From: Eledone cirrhosa
Lineage: Eukaryota
DNA: 64,000 bases
Assembly (NCBI GenBank): GCA_964016885.1
Contig: OZ024745.1
Span: 82,398,001-82,462,000, forward strand
Reading direction: 5' to 3'
Under the pieces are notes generated by a model. The model was given only the letters and a program-made list of their open reading frames with translations. It was not told the origin of the DNA and made no database searches. Each line of letters opens with the position of its first letter. Within the stretch, counting starts at the first letter, position 1. This document shows positions 2,837 through 17,414 of this stretch, piece by piece. A program made the position numbers and the translations under genes.

Positions 2837-2870
2837 GTTGAAATGGAGTGGAAAAGATGGGAAAGACCAC

Positions 2871-4390
2871 TTACCTTACTTCTCGTAGAGGAAAGACGGT
2901 TTCTCCATCCTTTTCACTTCTTGTGGCCTCCTCAGGAAGGATGTCCTTATAAATCCTCCTGGAGAGTGCTTGTCGGAAGTCTCCGATGTCTTTGGGGAAT
3001 TTTTGTTTTAGTGTCATGTACGTTTTCTGTGTGATGCGAGTGATTTGTATCTGTGGAGGTGGTGTGAACTTTTGGGTTGTTGTGTAGTATTTTTCTGTGA
3101 TGCTGGTGTTGTGTTGGATGTAGTGTAATAATTGGTTGTTGTTCAAATTTAATGCTGTGTAGTGTGTATCGTTTTGGTTGTTTTGTTTTGTCTGCGCTTG
3201 TTGTGGGTTTGTTTCTGTTTCGCTTTTTGGTGACTTTTGTGGTATAGGTGATGGTGGTTTTGGGGTTAATGATGGTGATAGTGTTGGTGTTAGGGGTGAT
3301 GCGGTTGGTGATGCTGGTGTGGACAGTGGCATATCTGTCCTAACTTTTTTGTTTGATAGTTTATTTGTCTCCCTCTGTATTTTTTTTTTCGACACACCTA
3401 GGCCTTCTGCCCTCGACAATTACGGTGAGGTGGCTGCCGTCAGTGAGGTCTATTACCTCTGGGATCTCCTCAATGCTTTTTTGGGCCGCTTGGATCAGGA
3501 GCTCCATCCCAGATCCGGACCAGTTTTCCTGCTTTTCTCTCGCTATTTCGATTATCTTTGTATTGGCTTCGATGCCGGCGAGGACGGCAGCTATTATCCA
3601 GGGAATTTCGATGGCCGGTGGAACGTGGGTGACCCTGATCTTTACGTGTTTCTGGCCACAATAGCTTGGGACGACTGTGAAGTCGTCACTTCTTAATGGG
3701 GCCATGGAGCGTTCTCTAGCCTCCTCTGGTGTTTCAAAGAACACGTCCACGGTTCTATACTTCTGCCCACGTCTGATGTGGGTTTTTCTGCCCACACATG
3801 TCCCAAAGCTTTTGGGATTTGGGACTCGGATTCTCGCCCCACTTGGCACGATTTTATGTTAATTGTCCGATAAGACACGGTGCATAGGCGACGATGCTCC
3901 ATTTTATTGGGTGGGGGATGGGGGGGGGGGGGGGGGGGGGGCTGACCCTGTACCTATCTTTCTTTACCATTCTTTTGGCTTCGCAATTTTTTGCTACTCT
4001 GGCAAAACTCAGGGTAGTTTTCTTAATTTCATTGTTGCAGTTGTTGTTATCGTTATTTTTGTTATTGTTAATTTTAGTTTCAGTTGTGGTGGTGGTGGCC
4101 TCAGTGGTGTTCGGTGTAGAAGACTTCATTTTCGTTGAATTCATTTCGATATCACGAGTTAATTAATTCTTTTCTTTTGTTTCTGTTGTCGCTGTGGTGG
4201 TAGAGGTGGGGGTGGCGGCTTTAACACCTGCAATCATTGGTAATGGCGGGAAATGAATGTCTGGCTGAGACAAATTAAAAGTATTGCTACTGCTTATACT
4301 TTTAGTGTTGGCAAACGTAATAATATATACAATGGTGGTGTCGGTGTGAGGTGCTGGATTGTGAGGAAGGTGTGACACTGAGTCTTCCAT
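2871..4390 (-). pseudogene. Tx1-like ORF1 type A, frameshifted; zinc knuckle removed by a deletion
   Basis: Homologous to copy B ORF1 (CTVSYRT, YRTVDVFF, YCGQK, VEGRRPRC) with T/P/N-rich low-complexity tracts; ends 35 nt before the ORF2 ATG. Confidence 0.8.
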
Positions 4391-4621
4391 GATTTTTCAA
4401 AGAAATTTGTTTTGTTTGATAATTATAAAAAGTTTAAATTTTGGGCTCAAGGCCCCAATATTTTTGAGTGTACTTTTCAGAAATCAATGTATGTGCACTT
4501 ATATACAGTTAACAATAACAACTTTCCATGAATGGCAATTTTAAACAACTGAAAATAACAAACTTTTGCGGAGCTCACGATGATACGATTTACTATGTAG
4601 GTCGCCAATAATAATAATAAT

Positions 4622-4805
4622 AATTGTTTCTACTTTTAGCACAAGACCAGCTAATATCCCAGTGTATTACTGGTACTTTATTTTATCGACCCCGTAAGGA
4701 TGAAAGGCAAAGTTAACCTCGGCGGGATTTGAACTCATACGGTAAAGGGACGTAACTATGCTAGAAAGCATGGCGTCCGACCATCTACCGATACTGCCAA
4801 TTCAC
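4622..4805 (-). mobile_element. tRNA-derived SINE (main family in the window)
   Basis: A-box-like TGGCAGTATCGG, B box GAGTTCAAATCCC, central CTTTGCCTTTCATCCTTACGGGGTCGATAAAATAAAGTACCAG (resembles the Meta/MESC-type SINE core from memory), 3' end CTTGTG...GTAGAAACAATT(ATT)n. More than 10 copies in the window. Confidence 0.88.
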
Positions 4806-4941
4806 TATATATATATATATATATATATATATATATATATATATATATATATATATATATATATATATATATATATATATATATATATATATATATATAT
4901 ATATATATATATATATATATATATATATATATATATATATA
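4806..4941. repeat. (TA)n microsatellite
   Basis: Perfect dinucleotide run. Confidence 0.99.
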
Positions 4942-14600: not shown

Positions 14601-15001
14601 CGGGACGTTCCAAGAAAGGTCTCCAGACGCCGGAAGAAATCAGGCCGCCCTGCTCCTGTCGGGGCATAGACGGCCACTAGCCTGAAAGCTTGCCCGTCTC
14701 CGCTGGTCACGTTCAGCACCACCAGCTTACCCTCTGGGTCCAGGAAGATGGCCCGTATGGCGCGATCCAAACCTCTCCGAAAAAGCACAGCAACTCCTCC
14801 ACCGGATCCAGGACGGCTGGGAGATGCGTACACATCGTAGCCGCCGAAGATCGGTGCGAAGGCCCGTGCTTCGGAGATTCTGGTCTCGCTGATGGCCACT
14901 ACATCTATGTTTAGTGACCTGAGGTCGTTGAGCAGGTGACCCTGCTTCCATGACGACCCCAAGCCACGCGCATTTATGCTGCCTATTCTGAGTGAGGTCA
15001 T
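11610..15001 (-). pseudogene. Tx1-like ORF2 (APE, RT, C-terminal CPRC..H..C zinc finger) with a single frameshift near 12776
   Basis: 742-aa ORF plus a 483-aa overlapping ORF. Relative to copy A, a net 28-bp loss at ~12776 explains the frameshift; restoring it gives 3420 nt (1139 aa). Confidence 0.93.
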
Positions 15002-15036
15002 GTTTAAAATAGAGTGGAAAAGATGGGAAAGACCAC

Positions 15037-17192
15037 TTACCGTACTTTTGGTAGAGGAGGGATGGTTTTTACATCCATTTTCACTTGATCGTCTGGTGAA
15101 GGGACCGTTGAATCGTCCCTTCGGCTGGTCGTCGGCTCTTCTAAGAGAATGTCTGAGTATACTCTTCGATTGATGGTTCCTCCTAGGTCCCTGAAATCAC
15201 CAACTGCGTTGGGGAATTTCGTTTTAATGTTTGTGTATTGTTTCTGTGCTATTTTTAGCAGTCTTATGTTAGTTGGCGTTTTGATTGGTGCTGGTATTAT
15301 GTAGTCCTGTTGTGAAATGTTTGTGTGTTCAATTATGTAAGTCATTAGTTTCTTGTTGTGTGTATTTATTGCCGTGCATTTGTTTTTCTGGGGGTGGGGT
15401 GTGGTTCTGCTATTTTCTTGTCGTTGTTGCTGGGTGTGTGTGTTTTGTTGTTGTGTTTGCGATGTTGGTGCTTGTGGTGGTGGTGTTGAAGTTATTGTTG
15501 GCGGTGGGGTTGTCGCCGGTGGTGATGGTGGTACTAGTGTGGGTGGTGATGGTGTTGGTGGTGTTGCTGCTGTGAGTCTCTTTGCAGTAGACTTTACCCT
15601 TTTTTCATTTCTTTCCTCCCTTTTCAAAGGCGACGATGCGCTGCTTCTGCGTTTGTGCCTTCTTACGACCTTTTGCCATCCCTCTCCCACCTCACACTCC
15701 ATGTCTGATTCTGTGAGTTCGGGTACCAGCTCCACTCTTTCACTTGTTGTTGTTGGTGATGTTTGCACTGGAATCTCCGTTGCAGCTGCATTTGGTATTG
15801 CTGTTGTTGTTGTTAATACTTCCACTGCTGCTGCTGTTTTTGATTTCCGTGGCGTGGGTATGGGTGCCACGGACCTATCGTTCCTGGTTGCCGCTTGTCC
15901 TGTTGCTGGTAGCCGTGGAGCCGGTTTCGGAAGGAGGGGGGTTTTCTCCTTTCTCAGGGTCTTCTCGTTGCAGAAGGCCCTGAGGTGAGTCTTCGATCCA
16001 CAGCGAAAGCATTTCGGGCGTTTGCCCTCAACACTTATGGGCAGTTGAGTGCCGTTATCGAAGTCTATCACATCCGGGATAGCTTCGATGCATTCTTGGT
16101 TGGTTTGGATTAACCCAATCTTCTCTTACTCTTTTCTGTACTTGCAATACAGTTGTTTTGTCCTCGATTCCGACGAGGACAGACGCAGCCAGTCAAGAAG
16201 GGGCCATCCTGGGAGGGGGGGGGGGGGGAACGAGGACGTGGGTCAGTTTGACCCTCACCAATTTTTTGCCCGCAGTAGAAGGGCACCAACACCATTTCCT
16301 CGCTCCTTAGGGTCACTAAGGATTGAGCCTTTGCCTCCTGGGGTGTGGCAAAAAGTACGTCTACGGTGGCATATTTCTTGCCTCGGGTGGTGTGCGTTTT
16401 CCGCTGCCACACAGACCCCAAGGCTTTTTGTATTTGAGCCTCTGTGGCTCTTTCAACCCTACGGGATTTTGTACTTACTGTACGGTACGTGACCGTACAG
16501 TGCTGTTGGGTTTCGAAAAATATTTCCGCTGCCTTGCAGATTGCTCGGTGTCCAGTTTTTGTCACCATCTTCTTCGCTTCCTCTAATTCCTCATTTGTTA
16601 TGAGGATGGTTTCCAGGTTCTTTGCGATACCTGCAAACGAGATTGGTTTTTCTTTGCTGTTGTTGTTGTTGTTGTTGTCGTCAGAGCTGGTGTTACTTTT
16701 GTTGTTGCTGCAGGTACTACGACTACTGCCGCCGCCGCTGTTGCTGTGGTTGTTGTTGTTGTTGCTGCTGCTGCTGCTGCTGTTGTTGTTGCTGCTCATG
16801 CTGTTGTTGTTTATGCTGCTGCTGATGCTGTTGCGGCTGCTACTGTTGTTTTCCTTGTCACTGTTGCTGCTGTTATTACGGCTGCTACTGCTATTATTCC
16901 TGACGTCAGACGAATGAAATGGGTTTTCGTATTTCCCGCACACCTTTTTCGTCGTTGTCGTCGTCGTCGTGGAGAAATCTTGCTCGCTTTGCACGTGATT
17001 TTTCTTTTCTGGCGTCACTTGCGAAGGAGAAGGGAGGGAGAGGGACACATTTAGAGAAGGGAGGGAGAGAGACAATCTTCTCTCTGCTGTAGTGACGATT
17101 GAGGAAGAAGAAGACGGAATGAGTGGGAGTGACCTATGAAAATTCTTTTTCGTAGCCATGTTGTTTTTTTGTTTAAAATAAATATTGGGCAC
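15037..17192 (-). pseudogene. Tx1-like ORF1 type B with zinc knuckle; disrupted near the poly-G at ~16211-16228 (possibly a homopolymer error)
   Basis: CFRCGSKTHLRAFC (CX2CX4HX4C); S/N-rich N-terminus and P/T-rich C-terminus. Confidence 0.85.
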
Positions 17193-17414
17193 AAAACCCC
17201 AATAAGCGGTTATTTAACCCCGAAGGGCCAAATAACGGGCAGAAAGACCCCTCTCACGAGGAGGAGGGTGTTTTTGTCTACAAGTTGGTTAAAGTGTTAA
17301 ACAATTTAAAATTGTTATAGCGGTCAAAATTTACAATACCTTACAGAGCCGAGCCTCCGTCAACCATAGCATTCAATAATAATAATAATAATAATAATAA
17401 TAATAATAATAATA

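Follow-up and report, generated by a model that had tools for sequence, protein, structure and literature searches.

Probable single-graft origin of a Tx1-like LINE family in Eledone cirrhosa, with splicing of a read-through RNA as a possible route

A 64,000-nucleotide (nt) stretch of the Eledone cirrhosa genome (the window; assembly GCA_964016885.1, contig OZ024745.1, positions 82,398,001 to 82,462,000 of the forward strand) contains three copies, A, B and C, of Tx1-like long interspersed elements (LINEs) with two open reading frames, ORF1 and ORF2. Copies A and B represent two families of the same names. Family B very probably arose once, when the 5' untranslated region (5'UTR) and ORF1 of an older family, B0, were grafted onto the remainder of an A element, and B0 appears to survive in the same genome as the donor. 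Judged from sequence comparison, the graft may have been made by splicing: within a read-through RNA, the 5'UTR and ORF1 of B0 would have been joined to the last 15 ORF1 codons, spacer, ORF2 and 3'UTR of A, and the product retrotransposed, a proposal to which we give slightly less than an even chance.

The initial annotation of the window had described copies A and B as one ORF2 with interchangeable fronts, and the contrast within the element on which it relied is borne out. Copies A (1-2919) and B (12400-15086) are 94.0% identical with gaps over 2,716 columns, and their ORF2s are 95.7% identical over 3,350 ungapped sites, whereas identity per 100 columns is 52, 50 and 67% upstream and at least 95% from about 2850 in A and 15018 in B. 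The boundary is as sharp as reported, but it does not lie at about 2880 and 15045: the shared block starts slightly further upstream, at 2916 in A and 15083 in B, 81-83 nt ahead of the ORF2 ATG and about 45 nt ahead of the ORF1 stop. Upstream of it, the 5' parts can be aligned at the DNA level in just two short patches (~72%), in agreement with the statement that the 5'UTRs barely align, and the ORF1 cores are homologous yet diverged, with 53-57% amino acid (aa) identity. Copy C does combine a type-A 5' end with a 3' end that is 94% like copy B. However, copy C is a type-A element with internal deletions, and since its 3' end matches the mixed pattern typical of older A copies, it is not an A/B mosaic and provides no evidence of swapping. 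Each of the three copies in the window is disabled: ~410 nt are missing from the ORF1 of copy A, which also has stops in ORF2, and copy B carries a frameshift in ORF1 and, in ORF2, a deletion of 28 nt.

Both families are dispersed through the genome at about 2,000 copies each. A 29-mer from the start of ORF2 has 4,613 exact genomic matches, and core motifs of ORF1 have 2,077 (A) and 1,877 (B). Mismatch-pattern searches for older A or B copies gave totals of 3,390 and 3,306, the latter possibly including a third family, E, with only exact matches among those listed. The locus sample consisted of 59 of the first 60 matches in order and 20 loci chosen in favour of tandem arrays; of these 79 loci, 47 are type A, 31 are type B and one, with its upstream part deleted, could not be typed. 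Each ORF1 type is present as multiple dispersed full-length insertions, a pattern that the initial annotation had named as support, and neither combination is restricted to a single locus. Both ORFs are intact in 10 of the 31 B loci versus none of the 47 A loci. An (ATT)n tract adjoins the 5' end in 69 of 71 cases and the 3' end in 68 of 72. Directly behind 18 of the 79 loci lies another A, B or E head. Head-to-tail arrays of three to five full-length B copies with a spacing of ~6 kb lie at 55.43-55.45, 56.17-56.18 and 57.09-57.10 Mb of G000:C1. The B junction and the A junction are also spanned by contigs from runs of two other studies (X5 for B, X7 for A), and misassembly and local conversion are excluded.

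The two reading frames tell different histories. In all four A-B pairs, the ORF1 cores share 54-57% of their residues and the proportion of synonymous differences (pS) is 0.75-0.77, which is synonymous saturation, whereas the synonymous divergence (dS) of ORF2 is 0.097 between A and B (0.088-0.11, 90 pairs) and 0.016-0.018 within type, as estimated from 21 intact ORF2s of 1139 aa (6 A, 15 B). Separate ORF1 and ORF2 trees, which the initial annotation had called for, included as outgroup family E, a third (ATT)n family. Its ORF1 resembles that of B (71-74%) more than that of A (55-57%), and its ORF2 is equidistant from both (dS ~0.55). Their topologies conflict. B groups with E to the exclusion of A in the ORF1 tree (99/97), where an A+B clade is rejected (approximately unbiased test, p-AU 0.031), while the ORF2 tree supports A+B at 99; the trees are thus incongruent, and their synonymous divergences are not comparable. 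In a tree of the 5' part of ORF2 with E as the root, the first copies to split off are the two oldest of A (99/94), and B is nested within A, with A as a single clade rejected (p-AU 0.022).

A search with an old B copy returned 29 further loci, 28 with ORF2 sequence of the A/B type and one, L255, with an E-type ORF2; the junction of L255, used as query, retrieved family B0. B0 carries the front of B on an E-type ORF2 in 30 of 30 loci with the B0 junction, which has 79 exact genomic matches, and full-length B0 copies begin with the 5' end of B. In ORF1, dS between B0 and B is 0.19-0.31 for five of six B0 copies (0.47 for the sixth, a frameshift-misaligned row), and in ORF2 it is 0.50-0.61; between B0 and E the corresponding values are 1.0-1.5 and 0.13-0.21. 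Since B0 is near B in ORF1 and near E in ORF2, the front of B moved between two ORF2 lineages, each of which has two fronts: A and B on one ORF2, and B0 and E on the other, the two ORF2s being about 16-17% apart. The alternative that B was native and A a captured module was dropped, as B is nested in the ORF2 of A and B0 has been found. Neither an E front on an A/B-type ORF2 nor an A front on an E-type ORF2 occurs in the loci examined, which fits homology-limited exchange. Of 20 loci selected because a motif was absent, 18 have an A/B-type ORF2, two have none attached and none has the E type, although fossils of the A ORF1 on another ORF2 were not thoroughly searched for.

Recombination also seems to have involved B0. 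Against the E copy L199, the B0 copies L304, L308 and L310 show dS of 0.32-0.36 in the endonuclease region and 0.09-0.14 in the reverse transcriptase (RT), which suggests a crossover between the two. Another B0 copy, L313, has ~500 nt of its own ORF2 followed by A/B-type sequence that starts 27 nt before the ATG (L313:3171-3176); it is an independent chimera, and its join does not lie at the donor motif described below. The window itself holds a decayed Tx1-like copy at 43989-45540 (+), ~72% identical to the ORF2, which keeps GAG|GTAAGT at 44140 and the same spacer length. No close family was found for it (best matches 76-82%); its matches led to E.

The join in B can be read to the base. B follows B0 up to CAAG, where B0 continues with GTAAGT (26 of 29 B0 junctions read CAAG|GTAAGTGA), and then follows A from right after CAG; the A side of the join is AGCAG in four of the six A copies listed, AACAG in one and mutated to AAG in one. 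The join is out of register, in that the last 15 ORF1 codons of A sit behind the homologous C-terminal stretch that B already has, so that the C-terminus of ORF1 is doubled. An extra G six bases past the join puts the codons of A in frame, and the gain of this G would be needed under every proposed route. With the extra G, the join has 2,165 exact genomic matches, and the junction has its founding form in 72 of the 73 junctions read, the remaining one being the B0 copy L255. Four B junctions are without the G, and two of these carry the oldest haplotype; they are too few to be called founders. Intermediates of 1-8 nt at the B junction have no genomic match. Over ~80 nt past the join, the oldest B and the mid-old A copies have one haplotype in common, and across the junction zone each lineage has since departed from it step by step. 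Being out of register, inherited in one form and derived from a shared haplotype, the join very probably represents one founding event and not a reusable swap site.

The initial annotation had drawn a different conclusion, namely that young subfamilies repeatedly swap cassettes of promoter and ORF1 onto one ORF2 at a fixed junction. A single junction common to all B copies and the existence of four pairings of front and ORF2 would agree with such swapping. However, an out-of-register join cannot recur by homology, the junction zone goes back to one haplotype, and the recent crossovers lie elsewhere, at ORF2 nt ~2440-2480, 2520-2570, 2640 and 3280, which makes repeated swapping very improbable.

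Exchange between A and B did continue inside ORF2. At 113 sites diagnostic for young A versus young B, most young copies are pure A or pure B. Copy B starts with 62 B alleles, followed by a-B and finally by 49 A alleles, with the switch at ORF2 nt 2442-2478. The same switch is present at unrelated sites in L113, L114 and L116 (full length: L142, L143, L145), it lies inside a second crossover in L141 and L144, and L121 and L128 switch at ~2520-2574. These recombinants were found among the 30 loci that best match that stretch; as the loci were selected by their similarity to copy B, no frequency can be derived from them. Later crossovers thus occurred at several points in ORF2 and the 3'UTR and were amplified; as one switch recurs at unrelated insertion sites, the recombinants retrotranspose, and crossovers are not confined to the end of ORF1. 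Old copies mix ancestral states, so that flags raised in them by MaxChi were left out of the crossover count. The earlier idea of one shared ORF2 does not hold literally, since young A and young B ORF2s are 3.5% apart and the ORF2 haplotype mostly tracks the ORF1 type. Homology-dependent exchange between A and B would have kept the two ORF2s within this ~3.5%.

As for how the graft was made, splicing of a B0-to-A tandem read-through RNA is the single most likely route, though it falls somewhat short of an even probability. A head-to-tail B0-A pair would have been transcribed as one read-through RNA, this RNA would have been spliced from AAG|GTAAGT of B0 to the position right after CAG in A, and its retrotransposition would have given the founder of family B. 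The route fits because the cut is donor-exact, the motif is conserved across five families, and head-to-tail B0-A pairs exist. On the B side, the acquired 5' piece ends at the donor position, exactly at AAG|GTAAGT of B0, which we take to fit the splice-donor consensus. The GTAAGT motif is conserved in A, B, E, B0 and L207 as well as in the decayed copy of the window, although E and B0 use the following TGA as the stop. An A head directly follows 2 of 20 B0 loci. The predicted duplex between spacer and 3'UTR is -39 (A/B) and -43 (E) kcal/mol within a family and -31 to -35 kcal/mol across families, compared with a median of -12 elsewhere in the element; such pairing would give an advantage to joins in which spacer, ORF2 and 3'UTR stay together. 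A separate candidate, removal of ORF2 by splicing to a CAG in the 3'UTR that resembles an acceptor, is not supported: its predicted junction has no genomic match and is absent from the 15 shown of 1,100 joints, and neither E nor L207 has conserved the CAG.

Several observations weigh against this reconstruction. Within lineages, dS of ORF1 is about twice that of ORF2, so that rate makes up part of the gap between the two; nevertheless, a twofold difference is too small to account for saturation versus a dS of 0.1. Fast ORF1 evolution in one lineage, to which this ratio would point, local gene conversion and misassembly are all but refuted as explanations, given thousands of dispersed copies, junctions spanned in two other studies, a tree conflict that involves an outgroup, and the donor family itself. 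In the tree of the 5' part of ORF2, most inner nodes among old copies are unresolved, and the test of B as one clade included L255 and is uninformative on nesting. With regard to splicing itself, no spliced RNA was seen, none of the listed sources of matching contigs is recorded as RNA, and X1, presumed to be an RNA run, covers the element only in small fragments. The acceptor on the A side is weak, with CAG only and no clear polypyrimidine tract, and a splice join looks the same as a 2-nt AG microhomology. CAAG...AGTGA surrounds the site in both parents and would attract a switch. A second donor-exact join was not found with probes that detect perhaps 20-30% of random acceptors: there were none at the E/B0 donor, and four at the A/B donor versus three at a control site. 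The four at the A/B donor are all non-splice deletions. In L292 the deletion hits the donor precisely, by way of a 3-nt microhomology without AG, so chance matches do occur.

The same single graft would also result if RT had switched from A RNA to a B0 template at the AG microhomology, or at the imperfect CAAG...AGTGA. The position at the donor would then be a coincidence, helped by selection to drop the B0 donor and to keep the A spacer together with the A 3'UTR. Template switching has been proposed for mouse L1, alongside RNA/DNA heteroduplex (PMC3600994), microhomology is present at the join, L292 provides a non-splice join exactly at a donor, and the better pairing of spacer and 3'UTR within a family narrows where viable joins can lie. 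However, the longer microhomologies (AGTGA, CAAG) were not used, no intermediate is seen, and of the positions at which a join would be viable, roughly estimated at ~50-80, only 3 fit the donor. We regard this route as less probable than splicing, but close to it. A deletion of ~6 kb of DNA between the head-to-tail members of a B0-A pair, with the fused copy then acting as a source element, appears improbable. Internal deletions are common in these copies (A and C in the window, and many loci) and tandem pairs exist, but the deletion would require two intact neighbours plus a chance landing on the donor, and this kind of route is reported to have been discounted for L1 (PMC3600994). Compared with template switching and deletion, splicing remains our preferred reading. 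On that reading, a conserved donor at the end of ORF1 and arrays formed by self-targeting may have allowed the spliceosome to join the promoter and ORF1 of one LINE to the ORF2 of its neighbour and so to found an autonomous family of >2,000 copies, and we hold this to be nearly as probable as not.

Table 1. Positions, within the window, of the three LINE copies and their parts
Feature	Position	Strand	Remarks
Copy A: type-A Tx1-like LINE, older A subtype, disabled	1..4606	-	3' end beyond the left edge of the window, read in locus L090
Copy A, 5'UTR + ORF1 module (type A)	2871..4606	-	~410 nt internal deletion at 3390; poly-C tract near 3915-3945
Copy A, point in ORF1 matching the join of the B front	2916..2918	-	AG|T; most A copies have CAG, copy A has AAG
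Copy A, GTAAGT donor-like motif over ORF1 stop + pyrimidine-rich spacer	2837..2874	-	ORF2 ATG at 2836
Copy A, ORF2 (APE endonuclease + RT)	1..2836	-	interrupted by stops and deletions
Copy B: full-length type-B element, (ATT)n tracts on either side	11320..17374	-	
Copy B, front module, B0-derived: 5'UTR + ORF1 (ATG 17159)	15084..17374	-	ends where B0 has the AAG|GTAAGT donor-like motif
Copy B, A-derived piece: last 15 ORF1 codons, GTAAGT motif of A (15040), spacer	15002..15083	-	junction alignment + peptides
Copy B, ORF2 (endonuclease, RT, zf-RVT)	11610..15001	-	28-nt deletion near 12775
Copy B, crossover from young-B to young-A ORF2 haplotype	12552..12588	-	ORF2 nt 2442-2478; sibling insertions on other contigs share the same switch
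Copy C: type-A element with three internal deletions	18917..20293	-	joins near 19942, 19352 and 19268

The 1139-aa ORF2 matches PF03372, PF00078 and PF13966 above cut-off, corresponding to an apurinic/apyrimidinic (APE) endonuclease, RT and a C-terminal zinc finger. It scores 329 bits against the Xenopus Tx1 ORF2 and 181 bits against the human L1 ORF2, the two being in different libraries, and the RT tree, built without an L1 outgroup, leaves the backbone open; the ORF2 is also 69% like an Argonauta protein. ORF1 proteins of the Tx1 clade and the L1 group carry one or more RNA recognition motif (RRM) domains and a CCHC knuckle. No Pfam match above cut-off was obtained for the ORF1 studied here, but its core is predicted to form two RRM-like domains followed by such a knuckle (predicted local distance difference test, pLDDT, 90.7, and just 40 for the fold from a single sequence). 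The best PDB matches of the model are tandem-RRM proteins (E 2e-4 to 1e-3, template modelling score ~0.4), and the knuckle, CX2CX4HX4C, can be read in the sequence. A word-based protein search with the ORF1 core gave no match; profile search found relatives in three Octopus species and Argonauta. The poly-C tract of the type-A ORF1 (window 3915-3945 (-)), which is followed by an ATG, is hypervariable and in frame in only 9 of 41 A copies, the analogous B tract being in frame in 24 of 29; an out-of-frame A tract may reflect decay or an ORF1 that tolerates a split. Target preference in Tx1 has been defined by >20% of flanks (PMC4494074), and the (ATT)n share of the A/B flanks is above that value.

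Other repeats lie between and beside these copies. An RT element with a zf-RVT and a restriction-endonuclease-like C-terminus, presumably Dong/R4-like by its motifs, ends in an (AAT)n tail (17415-18916 (+) and 21474-24808 (+)). Its 3' end sits tail-to-tail behind 20 of the 79 A/B loci, and therefore both kinds of LINE use one target. A short interspersed repeat that ends in (ATT)n, a candidate short interspersed nuclear element (SINE), is found at 4611-4806, 20307-20486, 31877-32254, 38189-38772 and 61765-61918, and copies A and C are each inserted in the (ATT)n tail of one of these. The window further contains a large AT-rich, foldback-like inverted repeat with arms 96-98% identical (4947-7162 and 7521-9938), another RT fragment (PF00078; 26385-28844 (+)), a 401-aa open frame without Pfam match (51579-52784 (-)) and a direct duplication of ~1.6 kb (53235-58518).

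Replacement of promoter and ORF1 in LINEs is usually argued from the descendants alone. Here both parents, the exact join, a tandem substrate and later recombinants are found in one genome, which makes DNA recombination, RNA/DNA heteroduplex, template switching and splicing directly testable. Moreover, two ORF1s of only 55% identity amplify in parallel on a single pool of recombining ORF2s, and this offers a natural way to test whether a LINE lineage is defined by its 5' module. If the proposed route is true, splicing would be a way of exchanging ORF1 between families too divergent for homologous recombination. Recombinant LINE families with a foreign 5'UTR and ORF1, as well as splice-made fronts of SVA elements, are already known; the differences here are the deep ORF1 split, the presence of both parents and the donor-exact, out-of-register join in an autonomous LINE. 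A full-text literature search, which had Repbase and subscription journals outside its scope, found no splice-made autonomous LINE family. A survey of octopus repeats names 13 recent L1-Tx1 families, and a word search of its main text did not turn up ORF1 (PMC13282606).

The closest parallels are the mouse families L1MdTf and L1MdGf, which are recombinant (PMC3600994). As in family B, the 5'UTR and ORF1 of one lineage sit on the ORF2 of another, the breakpoint is common to all descendants, and co-active families exchanged further sequence along ORF2 as well as the 3'UTR. Unlike in family B, the mouse breakpoints lie inside ORF2 and between close relatives, whereas the founding join of B lies in ORF1, is out of register with a doubled C-terminus, bridges ORF2s ~16-17% apart, and leaves A and B with ORF1s at synonymous saturation; only the later crossovers fit the in-register type. 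SVA_F1 (MAST2 exon 1) and pt_SVA_D6 (STK40 exon 1) are similar to B in that a new subfamily arose when a 5' piece ending at a donor replaced the front including the promoter (PMC6139936). Those SVAs are non-autonomous, took up a host exon and have <100 copies, while in B both pieces are of LINE origin, an entire protein gene was replaced, the family is autonomous with >2,000 copies, and splicing is putative. With regard to the target, the Tx1-clade families Kibi, at (TC)n, and Koshi, at (TTC)n, are likewise APE-type LINEs that prefer microsatellites, and tandem insertions have been described for a Tx1-mobilised SINE (PMC4494074). Unlike Kibi and Koshi, the A/B elements have a target, (ATT)n, that equals their own tail, which leads to mixed head-to-tail arrays. 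Finally, ORF1 is modular relative to ORF2 in the reticulate evolution of CR1/L2 (PMC4120745), and engineered exchange between human and mouse elements showed that exchanged ORF1s can work (PMC3091869). The former concerns deep, non-homologous ORF1 types and the latter laboratory chimeras, whereas the system of A, B and B0 presents both parents and the exact join within one genome.

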